Part shown: positions 1 through 27,715 of the stretch, piece after piece
Layout of the letters: every line of letters begins with the position of its first letter
Numbering within the stretch: position 1 is the stretch's first letter
Assembly: GCA_008632985.1 (NCBI GenBank)
Contig: QPGO01000141.1
Coordinates: forward strand, 124,001-188,000
Origin: Psammoneis japonica
Taxonomy: Eukaryota
Direction of reading: 5' to 3'
Length of the DNA stretch: 64,000 nt
The notes under the pieces: generated by a model
What the model saw: the letters and a program-made list of their open reading frames with translations, nothing else
What the model was told of the DNA's origin: nothing
The model's database searches: none
Position numbers and translations under genes: made by a program

Positions 1-1207
1 ACCTTAAAAAATGGGGGACAGTGCGCCGCGTGCACGAAAAATCGAAAAGAAGATGACCAAAACATCGAAAGATCCGCGACATCAAGTGGTTGTGAGAAAG
101 CCAGCTGACAAGGTTGCAAGAGACAATGAGGTTGAAACAACTCCTGCATTGGAAATGCAAAGAAACAATCATCAACATTTCACACTTGCAATGCAGGCTT
201 GTGCATGAAATCACAGAAGATTCTTCCGATCCACGGCAACACCCGAACTCTCAACAAAGCCTGCTCCACAGGGCGCCCACGTCACATGTGGGACAACTGC
301 ATTCCAAGCAAAAGACAAATCAAGTGTTGGTCGATCAAGTGCAGACACGCAACTGCTGGCATGCAACAAGGCACACGGTTGCCACTTGCGGTTGCCACTT
401 GCGCTGCTGCCTCTTCTTGCTGATGATGCGGGTCCACTGACATCATGATTGCCATTTCCGAGACAAGCCATTGGCATCAACATGCAATGAACAAGTCGTC
501 TCTGCCCCGCACTGTGCTGCACGTGCACCATCGCTCTTCCGCAAAATGGTGCATGAGTCATCAACCGGCATTCCATCTTTGTGGAGAATGTGGCGCACCA
601 GTGATCCGCAGCCTTTTGTCTCCACAGCGGATGCAATGGGGTTCTGGTGTCTTACACAGCAACAATGCAGACCACCGGGATGAGATGGATGCAACAAACT
701 GATGGTCATGGAGGTGACAGTTGGTTTTTTCAATCGCGGAGTGTTGTGGATTTCGGTGCGCGTGCGTGCTGTCCCCCGTTTCTCAAATGTCCAGGTCTCC
801 ATTGCCACACCACATGCGCTTCCCACAGGGTTTAGAGAGTCATTGCAGATGCGATTGCCACTCAATTTCCAACATTGACGCCGCCGTGAACGATTTGCTC
901 ACCATGGTCGAAGTCTTTTTTCTCGTGCAAAAAGCACGAGGATTGTGGGGTGGCGGACGAATGTGCCAAAAATTACATTTTAGTCGAGTCACTCAGCTGC
1001 GCTTGCCGGCCCATGCCCAATCGAAAGCACACGAGGCCACATTTGATGGATCGTCAGGTCAGTCACCCGCCATCTCTCGCATCACGCAATGATGATGAAA
1101 GATCCATTTCAGCCGCACATGCCTATCCATTGCTGAATTGCTGCAGCTAATAATAATAGCACTCATACTTGATCAATAAGACTCTCTCAACACTTCTCAT
1201 CTCAAAA

Positions 1208-3016
1208 ATGGCTCGGAGAAGGAGATACAATTATGTATTGGTGTACGTGGCGTGTTGTGTGTATCGACTCGTTAACGCGTGGTTACTTTATACACAATTT
1301 GATCCAGATGAGTATTGGCAAAGCTTGGAGCCCGCGTACTGTCGAGTGTTTTCTTCTTCTTTGCAAAAAAACAATTGTGCACTGACATGGGAATGGCTTG
1401 GAGACGAACCGATACGATCCTACGTATCGATAGTACCAACGTTTCTATTTTACAAGACTGTGCATGCGTTGCAACACTTTCTTACAGATGCTACAATTTC
1501 GTGGCTTGTTTCGAGAGGACCGTTGTATTTGCATGCGATACTCGTGACGGTTCCTACGGATTTGTGTATCTACTGCTTGTCATCATGTGAAGGGTGGTGT
1601 TTGTTTTGTTCCCTGACGAGTTGGTTTCACGGATACGCTCTGGCACGAACCTATAGCAATTCTCTAGAAACCGTGTTGCTTTTGTTGGGTCTGGTGCTAA
1701 TTCAACACAAAAAGACAAAATTGGCCTTTTTCTTGGGTGGAATCAGTGTATCGATTCGATTTACAGCCTTGGCGGCTTGGATTCCACTGGGAATGCACTT
1801 GGCGTTTTTTCGACAAGAAAACAAGCGCACCTCGATACGAAATTTGGTAACGTTTTTGTTTTATCCCTGTGCCATTTTTGGATTGCTCGGGGTGCTTGCC
1901 GCCATGATGGTGGATTATCACTTTTACGGAAAATGGACCTTAACGCTCTTGAACAATGTTGTATTCAATGTTGTGGAGAACAATGGAGCCTTGTATGGGA
2001 CTCATTCGTGGCATTGGTACTTGACGGGAGGAATACCAGCCATCACAGGAACCATGTTTCTCTTGTTGGTTTGGGATCTTACCGATCTCTTGACGGTCAT
2101 ACCGCAAAGAAAAGACAACAAGAGACGCACACAACGAAAACAGCTGTGGACCATTATTGGATGCTATACCCTGCTGCATTCCTGTAATGCGCACAAGGAG
2201 TTTCGCTTTCTCTTGCCCATACTACCGCTCTGTTGTATCTTGGCGGGCTATCGAATGAAGCTCTTGTACTTGATGTGTACCTCTGTGCTTGTGGATTCTT
2301 CGAGCAGATCCTTTCTCAAGGAAAAGGTGGCAAGCTACAAGGTGGTTTTGATTGTCATGATTACAGTCCCAATCCAGTTGAACCTTCTACCCATGCTGTA
2401 CCTTTCACAAGTTCATCAACGATCACCCATTTCGGTCAATCGATACATTGTCGAGTCCTTGTTGAAAACAGACTCAACCTTGTTGTCGTCTTCCAATGTC
2501 GATATTCATTATCTCATGGGATGTCATTCGACTCCGGCGTATAGCCATTTGCACGTACCGAAACGACCCGTGACAATTTGGACCTTGGATTGTTCACCCA
2601 ATTGTCGTCGAGCAAAGAATTGTGAGAGCGATGCATTCTTGACGGACCCCAAAAGCTTTGTATACGATCATTATCGGGCCTTGCAAAAAGAGGATATTTG
2701 CAAAGGCAGTAACGAGACGAAGGATACGTGTCGAGCCGACACTGCTTCTAATACATTCGCACATCAGCTCGAGACACCTGATTTCATGGCTGTCTTTGTG
2801 GCCGACGTGTTAAAGATTGGCAAGGATGCATTCGATGCTCTTGGCCTGCAGGAAGAGGCCCGCTTTATCCACTGTGTCATGGGAATGCGAATACGGATTG
2901 GATACGGATATTTGCATATTAAACACACGGATCGAAGCATTTATAGCAAGCGTTCCGCAGGACGCGTGGACGTATATTATGATGAAATGGTGCTCTTTAC
3001 CAAGAAGAAAGACTGA
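1208..3016 (+). CDS. PIGB: GPI mannosyltransferase 3 (PIG-B/Gpi10, Alg9-like GT22 family), intact, ~602 aa
   Basis: Motifs TQFDPDEYWQSLEPA, LTWEW..PIRSY, RTYSNSLET, YGTHSWHWY, HKEFRFLLP, LMGCHSTPAYSHLH, LDCSP; multiple hydrophobic segments; ATG at 1208 is in frame with ORF 1169..3016. Confidence 0.93.
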   Translation: MARRRRYNYVLVYVACCVYRLVNAWLLYTQFDPDEYWQSLEPAYCRVFSSSLQKNNCALTWEWLGDEPIRSYVSIVPTFLFYKTVHALQHFLTDATISWLVSRGPLYLHAILVTVPTDLCIYCLSSCEGWCLFCSLTSWFHGYALARTYSNSLETVLLLLGLVLIQHKKTKLAFFLGGISVSIRFTALAAWIPLGMHLAFFRQENKRTSIRNLVTFLFYPCAIFGLLGVLAAMMVDYHFYGKWTLTLLNNVVFNVVENNGALYGTHSWHWYLTGGIPAITGTMFLLLVWDLTDLLTVIPQRKDNKRRTQRKQLWTIIGCYTLLHSCNAHKEFRFLLPILPLCCILAGYRMKLLYLMCTSVLVDSSSRSFLKEKVASYKVVLIVMITVPIQLNLLPMLYLSQVHQRSPISVNRYIVESLLKTDSTLLSSSNVDIHYLMGCHSTPAYSHLHVPKRPVTIWTLDCSPNCRRAKNCESDAFLTDPKSFVYDHYRALQKEDICKGSNETKDTCRADTASNTFAHQLETPDFMAVFVADVLKIGKDAFDALGLQEEARFIHCVMGMRIRIGYGYLHIKHTDRSIYSKRSAGRVDVYYDEMVLFTKKKD

Positions 3017-3229
3017 TAATAAACAAGTCATTTCCGATGTCGTTTGTTTGCCGAGTCCTCCGTGAGAGCCACTACATGATGGGTTGGATGATGAACATGA
3101 GCCGAACGTTTAGCCAGTAGTGACAATGCTTCATGGACTACAAGATCGAGAGTAACTTATGAGTGTAAAACTTTGCAACTAGAAGCAGCTCAATATACTA
3201 TCGATAATCCGAATAAACATGCTGAACCT

Positions 3230-4260
3230 GAAGACCTGCCATTGACATCACGATTCGTCGCAGCAACCCCAATGACACTACCGTCTGCCGAGACGGACAA
3301 GGACAAATTTGGTCTCACCATTTAATGGTTAATCCATCTGCATCCATTTGTCGGCAGTGGTGTCGCACTGACAGATTCTGACTGGCTGGCTATTCCACAA
3401 ACTCGTCGCTCTTTTTATTTGTTGGATGAACAGAAAATGCACCATCACACAATGCACCAGATGCACCCTCTACAATGAAATGAACTACAAAAATGCAGTG
3501 CGATCAATACAAGTGGATGAAATACAAACTATATTTCTAATTGTCATTTACCTTGAATGCATGCGCGGATCCGGACCAGCCGCCGTTGGCATCAGCTCGA
3601 TAAGCACCAACTCCAACGACGCATACAGTTGTCACCTGCAGCCTCGCCATTTAAAGGATCTCCGACTCGCTTCCATTCGTTTTCATTGCTGTCATCATGA
3701 TACCTGCTTCCGACCGCCAAGACGTTTCCATTGCCACTCAACGACACTGAGAACCCAAAATTATCGTCAGGCTGTTGTGTCAAGAGACTTTGGCCATGTC
3801 GCTTCCATGTCAAAGTCGAGCGGTCGTACGAATAAACCGAAACCCTCTCACTGTTTCCAGGTGCACCCGCAGCCACGATCAAACCGCTGTCGTCAAGAGA
3901 AACAGAAGATCCAAAAACACCTTCAACGTCTTGTCCATTGATTGGATTGCCCAACAAATCCCATCTTGACGAGGCAGAATTGCATTCACACAGTGACACT
4001 TGCCCCGAATTTTTTCCACCCGAATCATTAAAACGAGCTCCAACGCCAACAATGGTTCCCCGTGAATTCAAGGAAACGGAGTGACCGAACCAATCATTGG
4101 TGGCTTGCCCAACGAGTGTTGGTCCAAGTTGGTTCCAGGATGAGGTGCCGCGGTTGTATTGAAATAATCGAAACGACCCAGATTTCAAGCCATTTTCCGT
4201 GTCATCCAAAAAAGCTCCCACGGCAACAATGCCTCCCGCGTCCGAGCGAAAGAAATCCGA
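3230..4260 (-). pseudogene. FG-GAP / integrin-alpha-like beta-propeller repeat protein relic, copy 1
   Basis: Repeats FGHSVSLNSRGTIVGVGA, FGSSVSLDDSGLIVAAGAP, FGFSVSLSGNGNVLAVGS in ORF 3592..4221; a further broken repeat SVSADGSVIGVAATNRDVNGRS at ~3235-3300. Confidence 0.8.
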
Positions 4261-4760
4261 TGTATCGGATTTAGTTAGAGTGCTGTTGTTAGAGTGCTGT
4301 TGGTGACGGCTGGTGCTGAGCCAACCGTTGTGACGTGTTGTCGGAGGGAAGCGTTGGATTTCCCTCCAATGGCGCTCACTTGTTACGAGTAGTTGTAACA
4401 GGCCTAAGAGTATCTTTGGATCGTTAGATTGTTGTCATACCAGTGCTGTGAGCAGCTGAGCCATTCGGCAGCTGGATTTACTCGCTTCATCAGAGCCAGT
4501 GTCCGCACTCCGCGGTTTGGTGATGGAAAACGATGAACAACGTGATTGTGACGGTTGTGTCACGATGGCACGGTTTTGACGACGAATGCCGACTAACCTG
4601 AGGGTATTGCATGCACAAAGCAGTGGGAGATGAGGCCACATCACCGCACTCTCAAGGCCTGCGCGCATCGTCAACGCGATTTTGTGAACGTCAAAGTTTT
4701 GATGTGCTTCTTCTGACACAACTACTTTGTCTTATGATGCTCAATGAATCAGGTTTCACC

Positions 4761-6180
4761 ATGGGGCAGCCCCACCGAACCCGATGGAAACGGCCCTCAC
4801 TTGGATCGGTTTCCAGCTGCCTGCTCAGCGCAACGCGATCATGACTGATGTCGCTGCGTTTGACGATGTCGTCGACATGAAGGAATCGGACATCGACACG
4901 CTCGCGCAGTCTTGTTCGAGGAGGACTGCTGCTGAGGGGCGTTTCCACTTTGGATTAGCTCGCACCCATCGTCTCAAGTCCCTTGTTCATTGGGTGCATG
5001 ACTTCCAACGCGTCAGTGAAAATCCTGCCATCGACGGTTTGGATCAGGCGCGTTTTCTCGATGCGCCATCTGCTGCGTTGTCGAGGGCCGACATTCGCAG
5101 CCAGATGAGGGATCAATCCGAGTCCATTGCTCGTGAGGCATCCCCTGGACTCTTGGAGAGCGAAAAGGTCTGGGCAAAATGGAGTGCCGCTTTCAAGAAC
5201 ATGCTCAGCACGATGCTGGGAGTCGACGGCGTTCCATTGATTTATGTCACACGCGAGAACGAGGAGCCCGAGCCTGAAGGGCATGAGACTTTCATGCAGA
5301 AGTCGGTTGCATGCGCTCCACTCGAGGGTCCAGCTTTCAAAGCTGATTCTCGTGCCGTCAGCCAACTGATCGTTTCGTTCACGAAAGGCACCCCAAGCGA
5401 GCAGTGGATCAAAGAGCACCGCAACAGCCAGAACGGTCGTCTCAACTGCGAATCTTTGGAGAACCACTGTCAGGGCGAGGGCAATGCTGCCCGTCGCATC
5501 TCAGAAGCTGAGCGTTTGGAAAACACTCTGCACTGCAGGAGTGAATGCTCCATGACATTCGAAATGTTCGTGAACAAGCTTCAGGAGATGTTCAACATTT
5601 TCGAAGAGAATGACGAACCCAAGACGGAGGCTCAGAAGCTGCGATTGCCATTCGGCAAGGTGCAACACCAGCAGTTGCAGAACACAGCAGAGACCCTGAA
5701 GGCGCAGAATGAGTTCAGAGGAGGGACCAGTTTTGCTGCAGCGTGAAACCATCTTGCCGCTAAAGTTGCCACTCTCCCGGAAACAGTTGCGCACCGTCGT
5801 GCGATTTCCTCTGTTGCGTCCGGCGTCAGCAAGGAAGGTGATTCCATTTACAAAGAAGATGGGTCCATTGACACCGGATTTCATAAAAATTGGCATCAAT
5901 TGAGCAAGGAAGACAAGAAGAAGGTCATGGAGAGCGTGTGCGTTTGGGACTCAAGAAGAAGCCGGGCAACCCGAAGCGCCGCGCTGCATCCGTCAGATCG
6001 CTTAAAAAGAAGAATCGGAAGCTGACGTCCCAGCTTGAGCAAGCGAACCACACTGTTTCTTCCTTGGAGACCACTGCCAGCACCGATTCCGGAAAGGTTG
6101 GTGCAGGAACTGGCGGTCAAGGTGGCAACAATGCCGGAGACGCATTTGGGGGACGCCAGGAGCGTCAGCAACGCAGCTGA
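4761..6180 (+). mobile_element. Ty1/copia (diatom CoDi-like) gag, degenerate; pol missing, copy 1
   Basis: Motifs GVPLIYVTRE, APLEGPAFxADSRAV, NGRL..LENHxQGEG, LHxRSE..FExF resemble diatom copia gag; frameshifts and a stop; no protease, integrase or RT downstream. Confidence 0.72.
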
Positions 6181-6434
6181 CTCCCAAGCTGGACCCTCTT
6201 CTGCAGCCTCATCCAGTTTGCATTGTGGCCACTTCATTGGGGCGGGGGCCAGCCGCATCGTTCGAAAGAAACGTTGGTTCATTGTCAGTGCCAGCAGAAT
6301 CATCTGAAGGAGGAGGCATTGAATTGTTGGACCGTGTCGTTTCGGGTCCTGACAAGAGAGAAACATTGTCATCAGCGTTCCTTTCTCTTTGCACCTCTGG
6401 TCCTCCTGGATGGATGGCAAAGGCGCCAGCAGCA

Positions 6435-6830
6435 TCAAAACATCTGCACCTGCATTGTGGATGTAAAGTTTGGAGCAGTTGTGGCGCCCATGTCTTCGTC
6501 GGCATGATTGGATTTAACGAGCAGTTGTGCAAGCTGTTTTTCTTCTTTTTGTGCTTTGTCTTTTTGTTCTTCAACAGCCAAGTTTGCTTCTGCTTGTTGC
6601 TGCTCTTGACGGTGGCGATGGGCAGTTTTTCTTTTCTTCTTTTTCTTGTGAGAAGCAGCGGCGGTTGTTTCTCCTGCAGGTGTTGTTTCTTCAAATTCTT
6701 CCAGTTGTTGCTTCTCCTTCTCGTCATCCTTCAAGTTGCTGCTCCTGCTGGCACTGCCATGAACACCACGCCTGTCGCACATGTCGTTGTTGTGGTTGTT
6801 GTTGGAATGATTCATCACGGGGGCAAACAA
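6435..6830 (-). pseudogene. Low-complexity K/E/Q-rich coding fragment of unknown origin (also ~26720-27110 and ~47025-47415)
   Basis: Minus-strand frame DDEKEKQQLEEFEE...HKKKKKRK...EEQKDKAQKEEKQ looks like a coiled coil with a basic patch. Confidence 0.4.
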
Positions 6831-7157
6831 CTCTGCTGGACAAACCGTCAACAAACAGCCACAAGCCACAAGCAACACGAGTGAGAGGTTTGTGATGCTC
6901 TGTTGCACAACTGGGCAGGTTCACAACTGCAAGTTTGGGACACCCACCTCGTGCAGTTCGACAAGGCAAATGACCCGTTTCTGACCGTTGGGTCAGCCCA
7001 GCCGTTTGAATTTAAAATTGAACGTTCTTGTGCGAGCAAGGCAAGCAATCAAAGGTTTTTTGGCTCACAATTTCTCTCTCTTTTGCTCATTCTTCTAAAG
7101 ACCAACAACGAGCAAAGAGCCGCCAGACAGTTTTTAATGCTGTCAACGCGATGCAGG

Positions 7158-9190
7158 ATGCCTCCGCCGCAGCTCCCATTTGTTTGCAGGAAGAACCCAC
7201 GCTTGTCTGTCATGGAGGCTTGGCAGCTGCAGAGTGCAGGTCAGCAGCAGCAAATTGCTGGCCAGGGGGGCCAAGGGGCCAACAATCAAGTTCTGGGCCA
7301 AGGCCTGGCACTGGGAGCCGCAGCTGTGGCCCACAATGTGCAAGTGCTGCTGCCACCACAAGTCCCAGTGCCTCCAGCAGGTCCTCAAGCAGCTGGAGCC
7401 ATGCAACTGCCCCTGCCGCTGGGAGCACCAGCAGTGCCGGCACCACCTCCGGTCATTTGCAACTGTCGCAAACACCACCTTGCCGCCAATGACAACCCAC
7501 ACCATGGCAAACACGCCAATTTGATGCAAGATGTTGCAGCACCATTGCAAGGAGTGTCCAGGTGCAACCCTGCCACGCTCCACAGTTGGGTGGCGGCAGC
7601 CTCAAGTCATCATCTGCCAATGGCAGTGATTGTCCATTGCCAAACTGAGGGGGGGCAACGCCAGCCACATGCAGGTCCCACACCAAATGTCTGCCTGCCC
7701 GACTGCAGCAATGAGTCCACAATGCCTTGGGACAGCCGAGTCTTTGCAACAGCTGGCGACATCACCTCAGACCAGTTTGCACTGGTTAAATTTGGGGACG
7801 ACTCATTCAACCTCATGCAGCAAGGCACTCGTGCACCAACCCATGCAGCGCTCTTGGAGCATGTTGCCAACAATGCCAATGGCTTGCACCCACACCTCCC
7901 CAATGATGCAGCAAAATGCCAAAGTTGTCCGCACATGTCGCGCCATGCATGTGCCATTTGAGTTCCTCCATTTTCTTCTTGCACAGCTGTTGCAACCCAA
8001 GCAGGCCTGTCAGCGCGTCCACGGTGCCGCCACTGCAGCAAACAAAGTTGCCGCTGTTGGATCACTGCTTGATTTTCTGCGTGTGGCATGCTGTGCCATG
8101 GAACAAACCAACACACCTCACCAGTGGCACGTGCATGGCCAGTTGTGACTCACCCACCGAGTTCAGTGCCAACTCGATTTTTTAATGTCGCGCAGGCAAT
8201 TGAAGAGCTCACTGGAGAACAACGGCAAGGGTGCCTGGATGCCACCGCAAGACAGCAAGCAGCAGCACACGGAAAGACGCCAATGATTTCTGGGGCATCT
8301 TTGGCATCACCAAGTTGATGCAATGGTGCAGTGTGCTAAATGAGGCAGTGCTGCCGCCACTTTGGGCTGCACCAGCCACCGCAACAAAAACAGGCCGACT
8401 GGCTGTGGTGCAAAACACCATGGATGAACAACGGCAGGCATTGTCCGTGCACTTCAGCCTCCCTGTCACTGTCAGTTTGGTCACAAAGTTGATCCAGCCA
8501 GATTTTGCTGGACACAACCAAGATGACCCAACCCAAGGTGTTGATCCCTTCCAGTTTGGGCTGGTCACACCCAACGGTGTGGCACAAATTGCATGTTGCA
8601 ACGCAGTGCACACTCACATCCAAAGCACCCTTGGCCACTGCCATGCAAGCCGCGCAACAATCGCACAATGGCTTGTGACCAGTGATGTCAGCGTTGATGG
8701 GAGCCAATCATCCAGCAGTGCAGTGGCTCACTTGCCAGCGTCATGACATGGACCGCCATGCCAACAAGCTGGCGGCACTGCACACCTTGCACCAAACCTT
8801 GCCCACGGATTTTCAATGCCGTGCGCAAATTGAAATCCGCCACTGGCTCAGGGCACAAGAGGCTGCACATTGGCCCCTCCCATTTGCACCCCTCAATGTC
8901 GTGTCTGAGGCAGCAAAGGGCATCGCGTGCTGGCACTCGCATCTGCCTGCAAACATGCATGCTGCCCCGCCTGACTTTGGGCAAGGCACCATGGCTGCAA
9001 ACCTGGCACACCGCCAGCCCATGCCAGCCAGAGCACCTCCAGCAGTTGCAGAAAGCAACAGTGTTGTCCGCAATCCTTCCTGTGATTCTCGTTTCACCGC
9101 GCTTCGGGAACGCCCCAATGTCAGGTCCTGCGACACAAAGACCCGTTGCACCAGAGATGGGATCAACCTTCCCAAGGATGCCCAAGGTCG
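7158..9190 (+). mobile_element. Degenerate ~2 kb ORF, possibly gag-like ORF1 of a retroelement (DIRS-like?); also ~27716-29490 and 47764-49803
   Basis: Protein-like across frameshifts (PWDSRVFATAGD, VRTxRAMxVPFEF, LLDFLRVA, PDFAGxNQDDPTQGVDPF); fully TpA-depleted. Family assignment is from resemblance only; no RT or recombinase seen. Confidence 0.4.
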
Positions 9191-9197
9191 GCTCCAT

Positions 9198-9385
9198 GAT
9201 TTGTTCCTCATTTTGTCCAGTGACGGAGTTTGGGACACAGTCAGCAATGAAGAAGCTGCTGGAATTGTCCTCAATGAGTCTTGTCCTGAAAGAACCACAG
9301 TGCAACAAGATGAGGACAACCATGATTTAGTTGTCAACACAGACTGCTTCAAGTGGACTGCCAAGAAACTGTGCAATTGTGCCAG
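9198..9385 (+). pseudogene. Protein phosphatase 2C C-terminal exon fragment (also ~29500-29687 and ~49811-49998)
   Basis: DLFLILSSDGVWDTVSNEEAA matches the PP2C FLILASDGLWD motif; ends at a donor-like AG|GTGAGT. Confidence 0.75.
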
Positions 9386-12270
9386 GTGAGTTTTGACATC
9401 ACACCTGGTTTGAGCTCATTTGCCGCATGATTGCGATTTGCTGTCTTCTGCTTTGGAGATCACATGCTCACCTTCATGCCCATCTGTTTTCATTGTGTGG
9501 GTCACGCGGATCTGGCAACAATTTTTCTGCCATTTGTGTGTCTTTGCAGAGTTGCGGCAATCCCAACTCAAGCTCTGGGAATCTGCACCGTCGCCTCTGC
9601 TGCACGACAGTCTTTTTCTTCAGAGTGAAATTCAGTTGCATGCTTTAAGTCCGCCTTCCTAAAGAGGCCAAAATTGGCAAGACTGACTTCTCCAGCACAA
9701 GATTTTTCTCACTGAACAGTGTTGAAAGCACAGTCATGGCTGTCTTGTTGGCTGCATCATTTCACAGCATGCGCAAAGGTTTCTGCCATTGAAACTCAAC
9801 AACGATCTTGTTGTCACTGATGAAATGCAATCTTTGCAGCAATGCCAAAAGAGCTGCAAACAATGTGATTCGATTCATTCTCTCTCCACTCTCCATTCTC
9901 TAGAGCAGAGTGTTGGAGAGCTGCCGCGCGGTAGAACAAGGATGCACAATGAGCACGGGAACCTAAAATTTCAATCGCAGCCACAGCGTGTGGAATGACG
10001 TTGCACGATGTCACAATCACAACAAACTGTGCACACACAGGAAACAAGAATCCACGGAATTGCACGGAATGTGTGCTTTTTCTCCTTGTTCCATTTGTTT
10101 GTTCCACAAAAAATGAGGCCTTTTTTTGTGTTCCGTTTGGGATTTTTCTAAGGAACATGCCCTCACATTCCAGATGGAAGTGTCAGCAATCGGAGTGCGA
10201 TGGTCACATTCCGTTCCGATCACCAAGACAAGTGCACTCCATTTTTGTGCGGAACATGAACTTGAAACTGGAACAACCGCTTCATTCCATGCACAGACTG
10301 TGAGGTCAACGAATTTTATTTTCAACAATGTGCCATTTGTTGGCACAGAGCATGTGTTGAGGTGAAAAATTGCAATGAACATTGTCCACATTGGCTGATG
10401 TCACTGCTCCATTGTTCAATGCTCTCTGTTTGTCCCTCTGTGATGATTCAAGCACCACAGCATCAAGAATGACGGTGAGATGTTTGATGCTGTAATGCTG
10501 TGAGACCGTGCATTGTTGTCATGGCATGCATGTTGTTGTCGTCTTTGATCGTGGAAAATGTTGTGCAGGACACTCACATCTTCATTTTTGTTTTAACTTG
10601 TTGCACAGCAAAGAAGACAGCACAACAATGATGGCCAAAATGTTTGGTTGACATTGGAATGAGAATCCCAAAAGGATCACACATTTTGTTGTTGTTTCAA
10701 TGTTGCAATGTGTCATTGACAAATCAAGGACTTTTAAAACAAACAATTCAAATCATGCATGTGAAACAATTGTGTCAAAAACAAAGAAGAAAACATTTGA
10801 TGACCACGTGCTGATTTGTTGAACAGCACGTGGAAAGACGTCATTGAATTCCACGTGACTTTGACTGCTCTGTAGAAGGTGCAACGATTCATGCCAGAGG
10901 AGAGGATTTGCATCGCAGCCACATTTTCTCGCACTTCTTCTCGTTTGCTCTGTGGGAAGAACAACGGGATGAGTGGGTGGTGTGATTTGTGACAATTGCA
11001 GCACACACGATGGTGAGTTGTGATGTGATTGTGCAGCACTTCAAAGGTCACTTGCACTCATGTTTTCTTCTCTCTTTTTGCTGTTGGGGTTTGTTTCGAG
11101 AGTCCAGAGGGTTCTGGTTCCGAGCGCAGGCTGCTCTGCTGCTGAGAGAGTGGCACTGCATCATCGACCACTCTGGCATTTGGCAAAAAAGACATCTGGA
11201 CAGCTGCATCCATCAACGGCCCGCAAGTGCAAGCTTCATTTTGCTTTTTCTGTCACATTGAATGCGTTGCTCACTTTTGACTTTGCCACATGTTGCTCAT
11301 GTTTGGGAAAGGTTGAAGTGCCCCTTGTCATCCATTGGGCACCCAAGACAATCAAAAGAAGGTGTGCATCATTCTGAGATTTGGCTGAGTGGTGTGGCAA
11401 AGCGATCGGTGTGCAAATGCAGGCAGAGCACCAGCATGGGCGGAGCAGGAGTTCTTGCTGTGCAATGGAAATGCAGCAGCACAATGACCCTGTTTTAGAA
11501 TTTCACTTGATTCCGCAACGTGTTCCGCATCACAAGCTCTGGAGATGACACGCCACACTCCGACCACAACACAGAAAGTGAAGCTGTTGCATTCCGTGTC
11601 ATTGGCTGAGCGAAAGGAATCCACAAACGGAATGTGGCAAAAGGAGTGGCAAATGGAATTTAAAACAAATGGCCTCTTTCTAACAAACAAAATGGTGAAA
11701 TGCAACACAGGGGTCGCCGATCTAGTGTTCAGTGCTTGTTGTTCCTGCGATTGCTCATCTGACAGAGACATCGTTGATGAAGAAATGTGACAAATGCATT
11801 TTGGTGACTTTGGTTCGAATGTTTAGTGTGGTTTGAACTTGCCTCATCAATGACGTCACAGAAGTCATTCTGGGCACACGCGTGTGTCAGAATGCCCAAC
11901 ACCCCGTCGATGGCCCAATTAATTTGTGCATTGTGATGTCATCAGCTCATGCAAGAAAATGTCCTGCGTGTCTTTTCCTCTCACGGAATTCATTTGTGGA
12001 GACAACAAACACTGTGTTTACGGTCAAACACAGAAATGATGTCATTTGCATTTGTGAACAACACAATCTCGTGAAAACAATGCAAAAAACAACAAACACT
12101 AGATGTGCGCGCTGCGCCGTGCCAATTAGATCAGCGAGGCCTGCGCGCAAATTGTGTCTTGGGTGCGGAATGAGTGCACATGTACGTTGGAATGTGACGC
12201 GGATTTTGATGAGGCTTTTTTCATTTTGCACCGTGTTGTTCACATTGGGGTGTCCCGAAAATCAAATTGG

Positions 12271-14817
12271 ATGGAAATCAGAGGCAAATCAGCCAGATTT
12301 GACCCCAATGGTCATCCGCACGCGTGCCTGCACCAGCCTGTTTTGCGTCTGCTGACAAATCAGGCTGATGGCAGGATCCATGCAAGCACACACCAGAAAT
12401 CCTCTTGCAGAAGCCATGAGAAGTGGCTGGTGTTCAACAAAAAAAGAGAACTTCAACGTGGTTGTGCTGGATTCCCTCTCAGAATTCACAAAAACAACAA
12501 ACATCACTCTGTTGCGTCTGTTGTTGTCGACCACAATGTCGAACTTGCCGTGGCGTGGCAAGCCTCTGCCACCTCTCCCAATGCCACAGAAGCTGAAAGA
12601 CGTGAACTTGTGGCCAGTGCAGCTTTGAGACGTCAGGTTCAGGCTGAAGAAATGAACAATTCAGAAGCAAACAACCAAGAAGAGGAAAGCGTGTCACACA
12701 TGAACGCATCCCGTGTCAGCAATTCGGGTCCCCATGCTGCAACCAGTGGGGATGAATTTGATGGAGAAGGCATGTCATTGTCTGAATCTGTTGACAACAG
12801 TGCTGCTGAGGAAGTTGCTGCAGCTGTCACTCCCACTCAGTCTCAGGAGAAACATCAACAGGAGCCCTCCACGGCTGAAGAAGTTCTGCACACTCCCGAG
12901 CACGCAAGGCAAGACGAGGAGGCCATGCAGCATTTTGATTGAGTCATTCACGAATTTGCTGAAGAAGACCCTGTTGAGTTTCATGAAGCCACACATGAAC
13001 GGTCATCTGCACAGAATCTTTTGGACACTCAAGTGACTGTCGACGAGGGAGGGAAGACCGGCACGTGCCGCGATCCGAAAACAGGGAAATTGTGTCTGCA
13101 GACTTGAAGCATCCACACAAAGAAGTCCACAGCCGATTGAAGAGAGAGACAAGAATGCAGGCTGAAGCATGCAGGAAGAGAGAACCACTCAGATGAGCTG
13201 TCAATGACAGAGCAAGAAAAAGTGCGTGCTTTTCTGCATCGTGAATGTTGCAATGTCATTTTGTTCTGGCCTGTTGTCTGACAACATTGTTGCCAAGATC
13301 TGAGATGGGGGGGATGCCTGTGCAAAGGTCTCTTGAAACGACATGCAACCTCCCAGATGAATGCTTTGGCAGGGTGGACAACACAGCTGAGCATGTCCAT
13401 GCTGAAGGCATGTGTCCAGAACCAAGGTCTTTGTCTGCCACCAGGGCTCAAGGTTTCGTCAACGGCCTGCTGAACCCAACAGAGTCTGAATGGGCTGGAG
13501 ATCCAACTGCTGGAAATGTTGTGGATCTACTTGGTGCATCCTCCAGCAGCATTGATGTGTTCTCATTCCCAAGACACCCTCATCCACGACGTCCGCGCAT
13601 GCAAGAAGAGTCGTCTTCCTCCAATTCCACCTCTGCCGACGACCATCTGCTGCTTCAAGATGGCAGGTGCACCAGGAGGGCCAGCACATGGGTGTCTCGC
13701 CCAACTCTTGGCACCTTCCTGGACAACGACAAAGAAGAAGCAGCTCTCCTTTTCATTTTGAAGGCTGCCAAGCAAAAGGGGTTCAACGAAAGCCTTGTCC
13801 ATGGAAAGTGCATCAAGTTTCTTTGTGACCCAGTGGATGGGGGCCTCTTTGACAGGAGTCGTCATGGGCCTCTCAGCAACTTCACTCCAATCACTGTGGA
13901 CACCCTCAGGAAAAAGTTGAAAGAGGCTGAGACTGTTTGTAGGAGCAGGTGCTGCTCACAAGGTTCCCACAGCACCGACACCACTGGGGCAGAGGGAGAG
14001 GCCACACCTGAGTTTGGCCGACTGTTTGTGGAGTTTTTCCGGCACCAGGAGCTCCAGTCAAGCTTGTCCTCCTCCCGTCGTCGATCTGCCAACGCTGAGG
14101 CTGCACGAGACAACAGGATCAGGTGTGTGAAGCGATTGTTTGTGCGTGTCATTTTCTGCAGCATCTCTCACAACATTCTGATGCCTCTCACAAGGGTGGA
14201 ATGAAGCACAATTGGAGCAATGGCTCCTCTTGGCAAGCCTGGACAGGCGCTCCGGTGGGAGACCACTCGTGGCACCTCTGCCAGTTCCTTGTTTGCGGCA
14301 TCACAGGACATTGGCTGTGGCCTCACCCAACAAATCAAGCCTTTGGATCCTGCTCAATCCCAAGGCTCAGCAGTTCAAACATGGAGTCCCCACGTCGTAC
14401 AAGGAGAGGCCGCCCCCCAGCTCCACGCCGCACACACAGCCTGGAGTCATCTCCAGGAGGAACGTCAAGCCACATTCCAACTCGGATGAGCAGTTTTTGC
14501 CGGGGGCACATGTTGCAGCATTCAAGAGCAACTTGCAAGATGTGGTGCAAATGACACACAGCACATCCACAGCGCCTCCTGCAGCAGCTGTTTGTCCATT
14601 TGCCACCATTTTGTCGGACATTTCGAATGTGCAGAACCAACGCGATCAGGCTGAAAATCGTGGAGAGAGCACCGAAAGCTTTGACTTTTACCTGGAAGTG
14701 CTCGAGAATGAGGTCAAAGCTTGCAATGCAGCACAGCAGTGTGCCCCACAGCAGCATCTATTTTCCTTGCACTCTTCTGAAGAAAACGAAAACCAAGAGA
14801 ACAGCTGCACCGGTTAG
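12271..14817 (+). pseudogene. Transposon ORF2 (candidate Harbinger accessory DNA-binding protein), degenerate; also 32572-35117 and 52885-55432
   Basis: Long protein-like frames convergent on the transposase inside the TIRs; acidic low-complexity middle, helical segment EAALLFILKAAKQKG...TLRKKLKEAE; probable intron at ~14124-14193. Confidence 0.5.
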
Positions 14818-14825
14818 ACCCGCAG

Positions 14826-15258
14826 TTGCGCGCCAAGATCCTGGCGCGATTTGCTCAACCAGTTGTTGCTTTACAAGCACTTAGAATTGCAGGACAATCA
14901 ACAGCAACAACATTGTGTGTAGAACGATGGCTTGCTTGTGGTGACACTGTCATTCCCACACCCCCATTGGATCGGAGTCGGCATTCAGACATCCAAACGA
15001 CCTGCAGTTTTGCGCCAAAATCCCAGCAGGATTTGATCAACTGGTCATTGCTTTGCAAGCACTCAGAACTGTGGGACAATCAACATCAATGACATCATCT
15101 GCAGAACCACAGCTTTCCAATGGTGTTGCTTTCGTTTCCATGCGCCCAGCAGATCAAATTTGGCATTGAGACATCCAAACGCCCCCGTGGTTGCGCACCA
15201 AAATCCCACCGCGATTTGATCGACCAGTCATTGCTTTGCAAGCACTTGGAAGCATGGG
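14826..15258. repeat. Imperfect tandem repeat, ~183 bp period, ~2.4 copies (also in copies 2 and 3)
   Basis: ttgcg..ccaa.atcc....gatttg.tc.ac..gt..ttgcttt.caagcact at ~14826, ~15010 and ~15191. Confidence 0.8.
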
Positions 15259-16721
15259 GCATGGCCTGCAATCCAAAGGTCCCGGGCTGGGTTTCATTCA
15301 TGCCACAGCAGCAATTCAAAAGAAAGAAGGATGAGAACAGCAGCTTCAAAATGCAGTCGCCACTGATGAACAGACGCAAATGGGATGGGTCGTGAAATGC
15401 ACCAACGAGATTGCGGTGGTCGGCAAAGGTGTGCTCCTCCAACTCTCTTGACCCTGCCATGGCAGAGTTGACATTCATTTCAAACCAATCTGGGTCCCGA
15501 CAGCGAGGAACAACAGCTGGCAAATCTTGAGCAAAAATTTCATCAGCATGCGGGGATGGGAGAAAAAGACGATGCGGCGGCAGGGCGTGTGGAGCTAGAA
15601 TTTCCTCGAGATGGCCACTCAGATTGCTCATGTTCATCACTCCATTGTCATGACGCAAAGAAGCAATCCAAATGCTTCCTGTCATTCCATTGGGAAGAAA
15701 AACTGCTTGCACTTTGAGACCATGAGCTCTGAAATGCATGCTGCAGCGACGGAAAACATGCACAAAGAATTGAGAAAGAGTGAGAAAGATGTTGACGACG
15801 GTTTGACAATCAACACATTTTCAGAAAGGACAACTCCACCCACAGAAAGCTTGTTGCATGTCATCTGTGAAGCCCCAGCGCCGTCTTGGTGAATCCCCAG
15901 GGCGAGCCGTTGGAACACCCGTGTAAAAATCCAAATGTTCGGAAGGTCAAAAATGGCAACACTGTGTGCATGAGTTGACCAAAGGTGGCAAATCCGCTGC
16001 CATCATCCACTTCTTGCAGAGAGGCCCTGCGAACCAGTTTGCTCCAAATCGCAAAACGAAATTTTGTGATGTGAGGCAGCCACATGTTCATCGACCGGCT
16101 GCTTGTCTTGGGGCAGAAAGTTCCATGCAAGTGTTCTGCCATGAATTGCATGATGCAAGTGAAGCGTCGTGGGTTGCCACCAAAAGCATCTCCAGCCATG
16201 GTGGTGCATGTGTGCCCAGATCGAAGGTGACATGAGAAAACAATGACAACCTCCTTGTGCTCAAAAACACAATCTTGACACCTCACAACCGCTGGAACGC
16301 GAAGGTGACGTGTGAGTTTCCGCAGTTTTCGGCGGTTGCAACCTGTGAAACTGCGGCATTCATGTGGAGCAAGACTGTTGATTGTCCTTTTCTGCTCCAA
16401 CAAAAATCTCTCCTGTCTTCTGTGAAAGAAACAACAATCTTCAAAGTTGAGCAGCGACATCATCGTGTGGCACTTGCACCATGCCAGCAAAGTGAAAAAA
16501 GTCTTGAACGCTGCTGCTTCTCGGAAGCACTGAGCTGCATTCCTTTGCTTCTTTTCAATTAAAACAACAAGCATGAACAAGAACAAAAGCAATGCATGAC
16601 AGTGTGACATCATCATCATTGCAACAGCACAGTGGCCGGCCATTTCTCGCGCATCTGATGCCGTCAAGCCATCACCATGGTGCAACCAGTTGGTGCGGTG
16701 CACTGCTTGCCTTCTGCCCAT
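15095..16721 (-). pseudogene. PIF/Harbinger (DDE_Tnp_4, HARBI1-like) transposase, degenerate, copy 1
   Basis: Motifs FGF(VDD)TG, HFRAHGLKVQAVFLPNG, xADGIF/ADEIF, NSAMAGxRELEEH; probable intron at ~15742-15838. Confidence 0.82.
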
Positions 16722-18650
16722 GCCATCCTCTCAGCATCATCTTGGCCGTCATCAGCATCACCAGAAGAAACATCCTCATGACTGCGTTGCCTGAGATTGA
16801 CGGCATCATCATCTTGGCTCATCATCTTGCTCGGCTGCGGCCTGCGGGTTCAAACAAAGCAGCACAACAAATTGTCCGTGGAGCAGCAACACAGAAAAGA
16901 GAGTTTGACACAGTCAATGTAGTCACTCGAATGAGGGATTGTGCTTCGTGCGATTTGAGAGGGCGCGCCACAGTTCTTGGCCCGTTCATTTTCTACGTGG
17001 CCTGGCACAACCCAAATCTGTGTAGATTCAGTGCATTTTGCCCTGCAGAACAGTTTTTGGGAGTGTTTTCTGGCTCGCAATGCAAAATGACACGCAAAAT
17101 GACATGGACAATGGCGTTTTGCCGATTTCAAAAATGCGGTTGTTTCTGAGGTGCTTTGCAGTGTGCTCTCAATGGAATGTCACACGTCACAGCACAAGGT
17201 GTGTGATGAGCTCGAGAGCACACAGGTTCACATGGGTGGCTGATGGTGACATTTTGAGCTGAAGATTGATGTTGACACCTCCGATTTTGTTGCATCAAAA
17301 CGCAACTTGTGCATCACCATTCATTCTGTGCATTTCGTTGAGCACTCACACGTTCACATTCTTTGAACTTGCACACATGTTGTCTTTCCTCATTGTTGTT
17401 TTGTTCTGCAGGGTCTCCCTTGCCATGAGCCATCCCTGAGAGAGAAATGCTTCCTTTGAATGTCACTTCTACCTTGCAACGGCCACGGCAGTCTGACGAC
17501 AAGTCCAAGTCACAGACACAGCATCCAGATGGCTTCACAATGAATGCAGAAGCTTGGGTCTGTGGTGTCTGCAGATGTTCAAGCTCTTGACAGCTCAGAT
17601 TTGTCGCAGAGCAATTTTGCCGCGCATTCGACGTGCTTCCAAAAGGCGATGCGGAGTTTTGTTCAACAGAGAAACGCACCATGGCAATTGTGATGGTTTG
17701 CATTGAGTCTCACAGCTGCAAGGCAGTTTGTGACACAGAAACATGTGACTTGTTTGCCTCATTTGCCAAGCCTGTGCAACACATTTAGAGGTGAAAGTCG
17801 GGGCAAATTGTGCACAGTGCCAAGTCTCCAAAAACAGCACAAGAGTGCAAGCCCAAAAGAAAAATTGGCTTTGCAACTTGCCACTAGAGTGCAGAGCTTG
17901 TTTTTCTGGGGCATCATGTCTCTGTTGTTTTTGTGGAGTGAACATTCACTGGAGTTGTCACCGCCAACGTGCGAGTTCACCTTGACAACATGTTGCACTG
18001 TGTTCTGAGATTTTGGAATGAAAAAACAACTTGCGCTCACATTGTTCTGTCACAACAGAAATGTGCGAGCTGTCCCTGGCCCTTTTGGAGAAATCGGGCA
18101 AGTGAAAGAGGAGCTGCAGAAAGATGCAGACGACGCCATTTTGATGGATTCTCGTCAGGTGGGGTGTGGCGAGGAGTCGTGATGGAGTGCCGCTTCGTGT
18201 TTTTGTGCTGCGTCCATGTGGGAATGTGCGTGCTTGGCTCTCGTGCAGTTTCCACGTAAAAAGTGCACCAGGCGATCTCTGGACCGCCCTCTTAAATGGA
18301 AATTTGACAGAAAAGGAATTTGGAATGTTTCACATTTTCGATTTCTCTGATCCCCTGCCGCGCGCGTCGTCAGCAACGCGCTTTTCGGGACACCCAGAAC
18401 TCAGCGGCGTGTGGGAGGCCGCGCGGTGCGCTGAAACGCGTCCGATTTGCGTCCGGAACCGCATTTTCGGGACACCCTATTCCGTTTTGAGGCCTTTCGC
18501 GACGGAGTCGCGCACACATTCCGTGCGATTCCGTGGATTCTCGTTTCCTGTGTAAAACAAATAACAGCTCCAACAGCAATAAACGAGATACGAGACAGTC
18601 GGCAGTCGAACACACCACGAGTCGAAGCAGGAGTGCCGCTATTATGGCGC

Positions 18651-19513
18651 ATGAATAAGGAAATTGCACTCATGGAAGATCACCGCCTTGACGAAGACGC
18701 CGATGGCTTCGAAGAGCATTTCAACGAGGCTGATGACGATGCATTTCCTCATATACAACAGTACTACGCCTCGTTGACCCCAGATTTGCGAGGAGAGGGA
18801 TATTTCGATACCCGCCTTGTCAGCTTTCACAAAGGCCCAAATATACCTGAAGAGCGGTACTTTTGTTCCCATCCCAAGTCACTATCCTACCTGAATGGTG
18901 ATCCTCGAAGGACTCCAGCAGATCATCCGCTCAGAGCCATCGCTTGGGTCCTTGACGCTGCTCCACTTAATTCTGTGGTGCGCCTTTTCTGCTACTCTCT
19001 GACAGATCCGATAGCGATTGATTTGCTCGTTCATGCCGGATCGTCGCGTGATGTCAGAGTTATCCTTCATCCAAATGACAAGAGTAAAAGAGCATTGGAA
19101 GAATTTGTTGATCAACATGGGAAAAGTGCTTTTCTCGAAAACATGGAAATTCGTCTAGCAAACCTAACAGGCTCCCGTGCGAATCGAGTAAGGTCCAAAT
19201 GCATGAGAAATCCCTTATTACGGATACATACACCGTTATTGGAAGTTACAACCTGTCGAGCTTTGCCCGCGTAGGAAATTGGGAGTCGATTTGCGTGGTG
19301 GATACACCGCCCAAATGTCAAGCCAACTTTGACGGCATCTGGGACAACATTTCCAATCGACAAGTTGAGAAGCTTTATGCCAATTTACAGAGCACAGTAG
19401 TTGGTCCTCGACGACGGGCCCGTGCTGCTGCACGAGAAGCAGAGGATGCGCGGCGACAACAGGCTGCCAGAAACCGCAAGGCCCAGGAACAAAGCTTAAC
19501 TACCACTCATTGA
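18651..19513 (+). CDS. PLD/Nuc-like protein, copy 1 (1-nt frameshift in a C run at ~19175, possibly a sequencing error)
   Basis: Essentially identical to copy 3 except ggctcccgtg versus ggctccccgtg. Confidence 0.7.
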
Positions 19514-19744
19514 ATTTGAGCTCCATGATGCTTTTTTAATATCTGTAAGAAGCTGGAGTTATGGTGGTCCGCGGTGCAGATAGGCTACCGCAGCCGTCTC
19601 CACCTTTCGTGGACTCGAATACAGGATGCACGAAGGCGCCAACAACCGCCGGGAGAACAAGTACCGGGCGTGTAACCAGGTGCCTCACTGGCGAGCACAA
19701 CATTTCCATTGCCACTCAACGACACGAACTTTGACTCTTACACA

Positions 19745-21030
19745 AGACGCCAAGATACTTTAGCAGTAACGCAATGTGGAGCTGCAGCTATTGCCTTTTT
19801 AAAGGTGAGGTGTACAGGATACAGAGTACTGTATGTTGGTATGTTTGTTCTCAACCACCGCACTCTCACGCAATAAGAGTACTTGTTGTTTCAATATATT
19901 AACGGAGTTCTTCCCGCCGCAACAGCCTTTATTGTACTTTGCTCGAAAATGGCATCGGTCATGAGCAAGTCGAAGCTCTTTTATTCGACCTGTATACCCG
20001 TTTTCTTCTTTTTCCTACATCTCTTTGATGCATGGATTTATCCCAATTCCAACCGGATCCACCCATCCTTGGAAACGGGGCTGTCGTGGTTGCCCCAGCG
20101 AAATGTGTTGGCCGAAATTCGCAGCCATTAGACATCTTGTTTGTTTTATATTGTGACGAAAATTTACTCGTCCGTCTCGGTCGGACTCTTGTTTTGGCAA
20201 TTTGCGAATGACGTTGTGTCCGTCGAACAAGCCATAAGCGTTTTTGTCTACTCTTTGCTCAAATGAGTAGACTGGTTCCCGTCGTGGCGGGACAATATGT
20301 TGTGCGGTATACCAGTCAATCCGAATCCTTTGCGGTGAGTTTGCACCGACTCGCGGCAGCCGTGAGTTTTGCGGGAGTCATGATTTGTGCCTCTCATCAT
20401 GCGAGTCGAACGTATATAAAACAGCAAGCACAAGAAGAGCAAGCTTCGTTATCCAATAATACCAAAGAGACGACGCCAGTATCTACACCAAAGAAACCTA
20501 AAGCATGGGGGGAATCGGCAAAGTTCCTGGCATCCTCGCAGTATCTGAGACTGATTGCCGCATTGGTGCGGGTGTACGGACTGTCGATTCATTAAAAAGA
20601 AAAAGTATCCCGATCCGCTCGATTATCAACGATTCCTATCAGCGTGCATTGTCATTTCTTTGGCGTGCACGTGATTCGAATCTTGGGATGGAGGGTGGGT
20701 GACATGACGAAATCATGGCTGTACTTGCATCACCATTCTTTGCTCGCATCTTATTGGATCTCGACGGCAGCCAGGATCTTTACTAAGCAAGACGTCCAAA
20801 TACGCACTCTTTGATCCCACGACACCAATGGCGTACAGTGCACTCGACGAGGAATCCAAGGTCAAGGGCAAGGCTGCGATTGATGTATTGGGATTGCGTA
20901 TTGGCAAGAGCGGCGGCTCGTTAGTTCAACAGGGTGGTAGTGTTGTTTGGAAACATTATTGATGCGGCGCCCGTGGTTGTCGTGATTTATAAAACCGTCT
21001 TGTTGGGGTGGATGGGCGCGGCTAAAGACT
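19745..21030 (+). pseudogene. NTT / TLC-family ATP:ADP (nucleotide) transporter pseudogene, copy 1
   Basis: DTLAVTQCGAAAIAFLK|intron, GVLPAATAF, LLFWQFANDVVSVEQA, KYALFDPT, MAYSALDEESKVKGKAAIDVLG.RIGKSGGSL; stops, frameshifts and internal deletions. Confidence 0.85.
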
Positions 21031-21032
21031 AC

Positions 21033-21142
21033 AGTGTAGAACAAAAGCGTTGTTTTCTTTTTAGAACTGATACCGTATCTACAAACAAAGTGTAGAACAA
21101 AAGCGTTGGTTGTTTTAGAACGGATACCGTATCTACAAACAA
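21033..21142. repeat. ~56-bp direct duplication (also at 41324 and 61963)
   Basis: agtgtagaacaaaagcgttg...ttttagaac.gataccgtatctacaaacaa occurs twice in tandem. Confidence 0.9.
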
Positions 21143-21502
21143 ATTGTCACTCGGACCTACAGCGCTAAAAAATCAGGAATCTTGTTATAGCCGCAAGTAG
21201 TGTTGTAGTGGCAGGGCCAACGTAATTCTGGACGAGGAGCTGCGTCTCTCCACATTTGATGGACTAATGTAGCAAAAGCTTGTTGAAATTGCTCTTCATC
21301 TTGATGACATCGTTGTCATCGTTGTTTGGGACTGACGCACCGTTGACCAATGCTCCTTGTCTGCCAACAACTGCACGTAGATGCCAGCAGGCGCTGAAGG
21401 AGCACTTGCTCCATGCAAAGATCTCTTGGTCCTTTTTCTTGTTGCATGGCGGAGCACCAAATGCGGTTGATGGTGCTTCATTGGAACACTTCTCATCTCA
21501 AA

Positions 21503-23307: not shown

Positions 23308-23520
23308 TAATAAACAAGTCATTTCCGATGTCGTTTGTTTGCCGAGTCCTCCGTGAGAGCCACTACATGATGGGTTGGATGATGAACATGAGCCGAACGT
23401 TTAGCCAGTAGTGACAATGCTTCATGGACTACAAGATCGAGAGTAACTTATGAGTGTAAAACTTTGCAACTAGAAGCAGCTCAATATACTATCGATAATC
23501 CGAATAAACATGCTGAACCT

Positions 23521-27441: not shown

Positions 27442-27715
27442 NNNNNNNNNNNNNNNNNNNNNNNNNNNNNNNNNNNNNNNNNNNNNNNNNNNNNNNNNNN
27501 NNNNNNNNNNNNNNNNNNNNNNNNNNNNNNNNNNNNNNNNNNNNNNNNNNNNNNNNNNNNNNNNNNNNNNNNNNNNNNNNNNNNNNNNNNNNNNNNNNNN
27601 NNNNNNNNNNNNNNNNNNNNNNNNNNNNNNNNNNNNNNNNNNNNNNNNNNNNNNNNNNNNNNNNNNNNNNNNNNNNNNNNNNNNNNNNNNNNNNNNNNNN
27701 NNNNNNNNNNNNNNN
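27442..27715. other. Assembly gap (274 N)
   Basis: Run of N; corresponds to ~7138-7418 in copy 1. Confidence 1.

Follow-up and report, generated by a model that had tools for sequence, protein, structure and literature searches.

Repeat-induced point mutation (RIP) turns CpA into TpA by transitions and is triggered by duplication. It is known from ascomycete fungi (PMC7296669, in its accessible part). A hypermutation that strikes TpA was described for DNA of nucleocytoplasmic large DNA viruses (NCLDV) and virophages integrated in the genome of the alga Bigelowiella natans (Mettrop et al., bioRxiv 10.64898/2026.01.13.699255). Here we analyzed a 64,000-nt stretch of contig QPGO01000141.1 of Psammoneis japonica; this whole stretch is called the window, and all coordinates are counted within it. 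It holds transposon DNA, including remnants of a copia-type gag-like gene and of a Harbinger/PIF transposase, in which the dinucleotide TA is nearly absent. We consider it probable, at roughly two chances in three, that the transposons of this diatom-like nuclear genome are subject to a targeted process of the kind seen in B. natans, by which TA is rewritten in place to TG or CA. Each such change is an A:T to G:C transition at the A of either strand. The data show that it is specific for TA and that, across a 13.8 kb mosaic of dead elements, almost no TA is left, with tyrosine codons and the TAA and TAG stops erased along with it. As to the chemistry, a deaminase, whether TadA/ADAT2-like or other, may convert adenine to inosine within DNA; it would be steered to silenced transposon chromatin or by repeat homology, and the role of the process would be genome defense. 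The authors of the preliminary description of this DNA knew of no such case in diatoms, and our literature search likewise returned the B. natans preprint as the only relevant report and none on a diatom.

The accessible part of that preprint gives direct evidence. In a mutation accumulation experiment, two viral inserts received 231 of the 302 single-nucleotide mutations that arose de novo, and 230 of these 231 were A>G or T>C, all on TpA according to the paper; the insert rate was ~6e-7 against a background of 3.5e-10, in some lines only. Over the B. natans genome, 324 low-TpA coding sequences were enriched for DDE and reverse transcriptase domains, and the TpA-depleted windows formed 124 clusters. 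An ADAT2 homolog is proposed there as the candidate enzyme, and reports of DNA-editing ADAT2 are cited (10.64898/2026.01.13.699255).

Set against what this part of the preprint states, the present locus is similar in four respects. The changes are exclusively TpA to TpG or CpA, on both strands, regional and with a rate excess of ~1000-fold; foreign or selfish DNA is struck, here a copia-type gag and a Harbinger transposase; TpA depletion with CpA and TpG enrichment is the long-term signature; and the action is uneven, with only some lines affected there and one of three copies of a tandem unit here. The two cases differ in lineage (a rhizarian there, a diatom-like stramenopile here), in targets (viral inserts there, a retroelement gag and a Harbinger element here) and in degree, since the observed/expected ratio (obs/exp) of TA is 0.07 here whereas the NCLDV region has a Rho of 0.45 and the virophage region is undepleted. 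The evidence also differs in kind, being direct mutation accumulation there and comparative only here. To this known kind of hypermutation the locus adds a T-A-pyrimidine (T-A-Y) motif, an edge at terminal repeats, a graded leak into host sequence and an association with CpG decay, features of which a word search of the accessible part of the preprint gave no mention. Diatoms did not turn up in that word search either.

The likeness to RIP lies in dense transitions at one dinucleotide that wreck transposons and flood reading frames with substitutions, and in a limit near the element edge that may leak into the flanks. However, TpA is removed here and made there, A and T are mutated here and C there, no stop codons are created here but TAA and TAG are removed, and the 20 kb unit has most of its duplicated genic sequence intact. 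Fungal RIP itself was rejected as the cause on its opposite direction, TA being down 9-fold and CA up.

TA erasure in a triplicated unit

A 20.3 kb unit stands in tandem in the window, as three copies and the start of a fourth (1189-62418): copy A (1189-21484), copy B (21485-41777) and copy C (41778-62418). Each copy contains a TA-erased block, with edges placed from the positions of the TA sites themselves and with no strand assigned: 4734-18552 in copy A (57 TA in 13,819 bp, obs/exp 0.067), 25028-38852 in copy B (54 TA, 0.065) and 45329-59478 in copy C (62 TA, 0.072). The blocks are 13.6-14.2 kb long and, at 0.065-0.072, are set against genic flanks with TA obs/exp of 0.554, 0.597, 0.556 and 0.640, the first two being those of 1148-4733 and 18553-25027. 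A sliding count gave 0.03-0.13 in each of the 1-kb bins from 5001 to 18000 and 0.48-0.72 in the genic bins on either side. The preliminary description of TA as near-absent over ~14 kb between normal neighbors (here 0.55-0.64) is borne out by these counts; the status of the three such regions that it listed has to be revised. Because they are copies of one tandem block, the three TA-poor blocks are one historical sample and not independent cases, one block being seen thrice.

The missing TA is roughly matched by a gain of its transition products. TG obs/exp is 1.60-1.62 and CA 1.62-1.67 in the blocks, against 1.20-1.35 in the flanks, while CG is ~0.6 (0.61-0.65) in the blocks versus ~1.0 in the flanks; in block A the values are 0.605 for CG, 1.62 for TG and 1.67 for CA. 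Pooled genic DNA has 0.60 for TA, 1.27 for TG and 1.21 for CA, and the pooled blocks have 0.07 for TA, 1.63 for TG and 1.66 for CA. The TG and CA gain of ~0.81 obs/exp units roughly offsets the combined TA and CG loss of ~0.94 units. The depletion extends over all frames and over the non-coding DNA of the blocks. In the six frames of block A we counted 52 TAA, 36 TAG and 607 TGA, compared with 126, 85 and 217 in the genic sequence at 18553-25027, and because TAA and TAG are nearly gone, long open reading frames (ORFs) overlap on both strands of the block.

Two remnants in the block could be compared with relatives. The first is a gag-like gene remnant on the plus strand at 4766-6165, which matches P0121 in tblastn over residues 3-471 of 476 at 63% identity and has a frameshift near 5932; its ORF (4748-5743) has nine homologs of ~480 amino acids that are 39-63% identical. 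In the environmental loci L004 (E 3.7e-17) and L006 (E 4.6e-6), a gag homolog adjoins an RVT_2 pol gene, and the gene is classed as copia-type because its relatives sit beside this reverse transcriptase. No match to the environmental pol was found in the window (tblastn, E 1e-4). The second is a Harbinger/PIF (DDE_Tnp_4-type) transposase remnant on the minus strand at 15260-16727, matching P0141 in tblastn over residues 25-480 of 517, with a frameshift near 15920. Its ORF (15864-16730, minus strand) has 150 homologs, and DDE_Tnp_4 was above the Pfam cut-off in four longer ones.

These relatives indicate that the TA-poor state was caused by mutation and is not the native composition of the elements. 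It had been proposed as a test that family members might be equally free of TpA; the gag homologs in 11 environmental loci have instead TA obs/exp of 0.40-0.77, and the window copy has 0.04. CG obs/exp in this gag segment is 0.95, and since TA is 0.04 at such a CG value, TA loss is independent of CpG decay. At the protein level, the tyrosine content is 0.3% in the gag remnant and 0.0% in that of the transposase, against homolog means of 2.2% and 5.1%. Cysteine and histidine are raised in both transposable element (TE) remnants, to 5.5% and 6.6% in the transposase. At the 12 alignment columns with a majority of tyrosine, the window copies read tyrosine once, cysteine three times, histidine twice, phenylalanine three times and other residues three times. 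The gag sites NHCQGEG and LHCRSE, already singled out in the preliminary description as having lost tyrosine to cysteine or histidine, align with H-Y/F and H-Y of the homologs, and the near absence of tyrosine that it reported holds for both remnants. Only 4 of the 150 transposase relatives have no tyrosine, all of them short (P0160, P0246, P0269 and P0272). Two of these, P0160 and P0269, have histidine or cysteine at some of the conserved tyrosine positions that are also lost in the window copy, which hints that they may be other elements possibly struck by the same process.

Polarized substitutions and the target motif

The direction of change can be read where the unit copies differ. We aligned the three copies and took the odd one out as derived. 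Inside the blocks, 146 private changes had conserved flanks, of which 58 were CG>TG/CA and only two were TA>CA; TA targets are almost exhausted there, and the private changes are mostly CpG decay. The situation is different in the PLD/NTT flank to the right of block B, where TA>TG/CA changes spread over 38853-40525 (no strand assigned) in copy B only. At alignment columns 38650-40650, copy B has 36 private substitutions, comprising 33 TA>TG/CA and 3 CpG>TpG/CpA, whereas copy A has none and copy C has one. The region-limited conversion of TA to TG and CA on both strands that had been claimed from composition is thus visible as polarized events, 33 of 36 fitting it.

Conversion reached 33 of the 80 ancestral TA sites of this flank, and it falls with distance. 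Per 250 bp from the element end, converted over available sites are 11/11, 6/9, 5/12, 0/9, 3/12, 6/15 and 1/10, and the next kilobase has 0/49; the leak extends ~1.75 kb into host sequence as a falling gradient. With ~0.4 changes per TA site in this flank and at most one other change in ~4 kb of sister sequence, the TA rate is of the order of a thousand-fold above that of other substitutions, although the numbers are small. Both strands are hit without strand-coordinated runs. The 33 events, 15 of one outcome and 18 of the other, alternate between TG and CA along the flank in 15 runs against 17.4 expected (z -0.84), and this runs test on the copy B events gave no sign of processive single-strand tracts.

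Context decides which adenines change. A>G in the copy B flank was found at 33 of 161 adenines after T and at none after A (0/303), C (0/275) or G (0/266), that is, at 0 of 844 in the three other contexts pooled; a polarized context table had been suggested as a check, and this is the TpA excess it reveals. On the 3′ side, the counts are 12/51 before C, 16/50 before T, 4/38 before A and 1/21 before G, which gives 28/101 for pyrimidines against 5/59 for purines (Fisher p 0.004). The requirement for a 5′ T is absolute, and the 3′ preference is for a pyrimidine and not specific to C. The older record inside the blocks points to the same motif, in a 41 kb tally that pools the three copies, which are not three independent samples. 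ATAC and ATAT do not occur in it, although genic DNA has 6.1 and 2.3 per kb, and GTAT is left at 0.5% of its genic density. CTAG, TTAA, TTAG and CTAA, the Y-TA-R words that hold no T-A-Y on either strand, are left at 0.34-0.64 of genic density. These tetranucleotides argue that the preferred motif is T-A-Y and that Y-TA-R sites such as CTAG and TTAA are spared.

The same counts make an untargeted mechanism extremely unlikely, be it reverse transcription of TE RNA that had undergone ADAR-like editing, synthesis by Pol eta, gene conversion with a GC bias or selection against TA. Pol eta targets WA, which would favor it, and a Pol eta-type WA>WG signature had been put forward in the preliminary description; yet none of the 303 adenines in AA context changed against 33 of 161 in TA, and this mechanism is ruled out. 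Biased gene conversion is ruled out as well, there being no AT>GC change outside TA among the 844 other adenines. ADARs favor a 5′ U, but a route through RNA would not explain why a DNA transposon and the host PLD/NTT flank are also affected. Moreover, the ADAR hot spot is 5′-UAG, whereas A before G is the least mutated class here (1/21) and TAG and TAA contexts survive in the blocks. Selection against TA is at odds with a depletion that covers all frames and non-coding DNA.

Targeting, chemistry and history

The limits of the depletion follow the limits of an element. A 42-nt left arm of an inverted repeat (10035-10076) is 95% complementary to a right arm at 18512-18553, neither arm having a strand. 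The pair surrounds the transposase and is a candidate for the terminal inverted repeats of a Harbinger-type element of 8.5 kb. The depletion of copies A and C stops at the last base of the right arm: the TA sites of copy A lie at 18257, 18293 and 18478 inside and at 18553, 18562, 18580, 18589 and onward outside. On the left, the depletion sets in no more than ~30 bp from where gag starts, dense TA sites being last seen at 4723 and 4733. Targeting thus keeps to the limits of the element in copies A and C and goes beyond them in copy B. The edges and the leak together suggest targeting by silencing chromatin, small RNA or homology. Simple duplication-triggering in the manner of RIP is unsupported, because each unit has over 6 kb of genic sequence that is triplicated at 97-99% identity and yet keeps TA obs/exp of 0.55-0.64, the flank of copy B alone being hit.

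Cytosine methylation seems to have touched the same DNA. CpG methylation decay of silenced transposons also yields TG and CA, and it is active in these blocks (CG obs/exp 0.6); however, it cannot remove TA. The three extra CpG decays in the copy B flank suggest that methylation spread there too, the methylation link itself being deduced from the decay.

It is rather unlikely, but conceivable, that the elements had undergone their mutation in another place or in the distant past and were already free of TA when inserted or juxtaposed here, so that the blocks would represent history and not a local process. In copies A and C the depletion stops exactly where the inverted repeat ends, which speaks for this, and so does the age of the loss: the residual TA sites of the blocks are almost all common to the three copies, which implies that most TA loss predates the triplication. 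On the other hand, the 33 private TA>TG/CA changes of copy B lie in the host flank, outside the element, and sites 4957, 5244 and 9932 in the block still vary between TA and TG/CA among the copies. Several unrelated segments are depleted alike, and both recognizable genes are dead, with frameshifts and lost conserved tyrosines. Paralogous transposase segments carry 10 discordant TG/CA doublets against 2.6 expected from CpG decay, which fits independent TA loss following duplication but is suggestive only. Taken uncorrected, such doublets were rejected as proof of independent loss, as CpG decay yields the same pattern.

The chemistry of the targeted process can be approached from known enzymes. 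In tRNA, U33 precedes anticodon position 34. TadA and ADAT2 act on an A preceded by U or T and turn it into I, which is read as G; this is compatible with T-A-Y here, and a TadA/ADAT-like adenine deaminase, as put forward in the preliminary description, may be the agent. The accessible table entry for TadA/ADAT2 gives the motif 5′ACG at anticodon position 34; in the window, T-A-T is struck as often as T-A-C (16/50 versus 12/51), and the match to ACG is only partial. Alternatively, though this appears unlikely, the same targeted process might act on thymine, with a modified or oxidized T at TpA (of the hydroxymethyl-U or base-J type, made by TET/JBP-like enzymes) being read or repaired as C. 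TA is self-complementary, and T>C after a purine is therefore indistinguishable from A>G before a pyrimidine. In dinoflagellates, 5-hydroxymethyluracil replaces thymine preferentially at TpA; the literature search found no paper on it. Against a thymine chemistry, we know of no high-yield route from modified T to C, and the sole experimental precedent, the B. natans study, reads the signature in its accessible part as adenine deamination, itself without proof.

A sequencing or assembly artifact, through miscalls at modified DNA in silenced chromatin or mis-polishing in a tandem repeat, is very unlikely for the main observation. The sequencing platform is unrecorded, copy B has an assembly gap of 274 N at 27442-27715, the repeat is three-fold, and the copy B alleles are absent from read contigs, all of which leave some room for it. 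However, contigs built from words of run X1 (2019) at a depth of ~79 reproduce the TA-poor block in pieces of 0.5-1.8 kb with 0-2 other letters each, one of them matching 32525-34141 over 1617 bp with 0 differences, and this argues against an artifact. The tyrosine to cysteine and histidine pattern of the proteins makes sense as real evolution, as does the CpG decay, and the tyrosine-free relatives P0160 and P0269 carry histidine or cysteine at some of the same positions. Of the words sampled from 33000-42000, 74% are present in X1. An X1 contig at 40962-41917 spans the junction of copies B and C, and the head-to-tail arrangement is read-supported because of it.

Several observations weigh against the targeted in-place reading that we favor. 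X1 may be the assembly's own source, its platform not being on record. At eight places of the copy B flank (38869-39130), the contigs have the TA allele found in copies A and C and no other, at depths of 48-57, and three pieces from run X2, too, show only the TA allele, the number of other letters in each being that of the B-private sites it spans. The silence of the contigs neither confirms nor refutes the copy B alleles, because contigs drop minority variants; the contigs support the TA-poor block and leave the flank alleles unconfirmed. Majority polarization among three copies assumes that there was no gene conversion, and the three blocks amount to one historical sample. An element that had been mutated before its arrival would likewise account for the razor-sharp edge in copies A and C, and the sparing of the duplicated genic parts is unlike simple repeat-triggering. 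Finally, sequence by itself cannot separate A deamination from a T-directed change on the other strand.

Surrounding features and significance

The element content of the block is only partly recognizable. The copia gag and the Harbinger element named in the preliminary description were both recovered, but only these two parts are shown to be transposon genes; the PP2C fragment also named there is a weak match on the plus strand at 8679-9386 (PF00481, E 2.9e-4, 28 residues, 21.0 bits versus a cut-off of 20.3), hence marginal only. Among the 106 stop-to-stop ORFs of 4400-18700, Pfam gave nothing beyond it. The homology search with ORF 6885-7958 (358 aa) returned no match, and ORF 13245-14201 (319 aa) had no Pfam match, so that ~4 kb at 6200-10034 and, between the ends of the 8.5 kb element, most of the sequence are without a family match in Pfam or, for ORF 6885-7958, in the homology search. 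A 182-bp tandem repeat of 2.4 copies (14817-15246, no strand) lies within this element. X1 word depth is 400-5000 over parts of the blocks against ~79 elsewhere, and at 37058-38391, 30388-32388 and 44395-46395 it is 5 to 65 times that of neighboring sequence; because of the raised depth, these parts are assigned to high-copy repeat families of the genome.

The genic parts of the unit have normal TA. In copy A, a PIG-B/GPI mannosyltransferase gene lies to the left on the plus strand at 1160-3016 (Glyco_transf_22, E 2.5e-64); its best matches are 41-42% identical, and the named ones among the 120 listed are all diatoms, which points to a diatom-like organism that is distinct from Bigelowiella. 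An FG-GAP ORF is also present in this flank. On the right, the plus-strand sequence at 18554-21484 holds a PLD-like fragment (PLDc_2, 19112-19510) and TLC/NTT transporter fragments (TLC at 19877-20128, 20212-20592 and 20708-20959).

Several side observations concern differences between the copies and stretches outside the blocks. The PIG-B frame is a single long open frame in copies A (1160-3016) and C (41561-43603) but is broken up into three ORFs in copy B (21268-23307), so that the broken frame and the hypermutated right flank fall in the same copy. Pairwise identity between unit copies is 97-99.5% and mosaic (96.9-99.5%), which suggests exchange between them. In copy C, a further 849 bp is duplicated in tandem and ~1.2 kb is lost to deletions near 58855-59212. 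An extra tandem copy of the transposase segment (55986-58081, minus strand, 93-94% identical) occurs in copy C only. To the left of the block, the FG-GAP ORF region at 3678-4178 has 3-4 TA per 250 bp against 10-11 in its neighbors, equally in all three copies, which could reflect coding constraint or old partial leakage. At the very start of the window, left of the tandem array, a further TA-poor stretch (1-1123, no strand) has 5 TA (obs/exp 0.075) and is unannotated; a Pfam scan of nine ORFs of 1-1200 gave no match, and TA density is back to normal from 1148 onward. Most of what X2 covers is genic, with a few segments of the blocks in addition. At 31312-31401, in the copy B block, its contigs skip 88 nt with GT..AG ends. 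Splicing of a transcript or a variant with a deletion could explain this, the type of run being only a guess.

We tentatively entertain a broader reading, to which we give somewhat less than an even chance, in which diatoms, and perhaps much of the stramenopile, alveolate and rhizarian (SAR) group, have a dedicated T-A-Y DNA editor that is guided to transposon limits and kills by TA erasure. It would be an adenine mirror of fungal RIP, guided by homology, small RNA or silencing marks, and it would occasionally spill over, along with cytosine methylation, into neighboring genes. An ADAT2 paralog could be the enzyme, or else a stramenopile-only deaminase fused to SAM/Tudor arrays, and such a fusion would tie the enzyme to the reading of methyl marks. 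Stramenopile-restricted deaminases fused to SAM and Tudor arrays are described in the accessible part of Iyer et al. 2011; we regard them as a lead for the enzyme, nothing more.

The consequences of such a targeted process would reach beyond this locus. DNA with TA erased carries spurious long ORFs, so gene callers would over-predict in such genomes and the annotation of genes and transposons would be biased; the TE proteins of the block escaped Pfam detection at E up to 0.1. With the T-A-Y preference, the biochemical hunt for a natural enzyme that edits adenine in DNA would have a sharper motif. The process heeds the ends of transposons and yet can damage adjoining genes, and a link to cytosine methylation is indicated. 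If confirmed, a defense first reported in 2026 in one rhizarian alga also works in a diatom-like alga, in an ecologically dominant group, and at saturation on the transposons seen here. As the same process would then operate in the unrelated B. natans, it may be a widespread form of genome defense.

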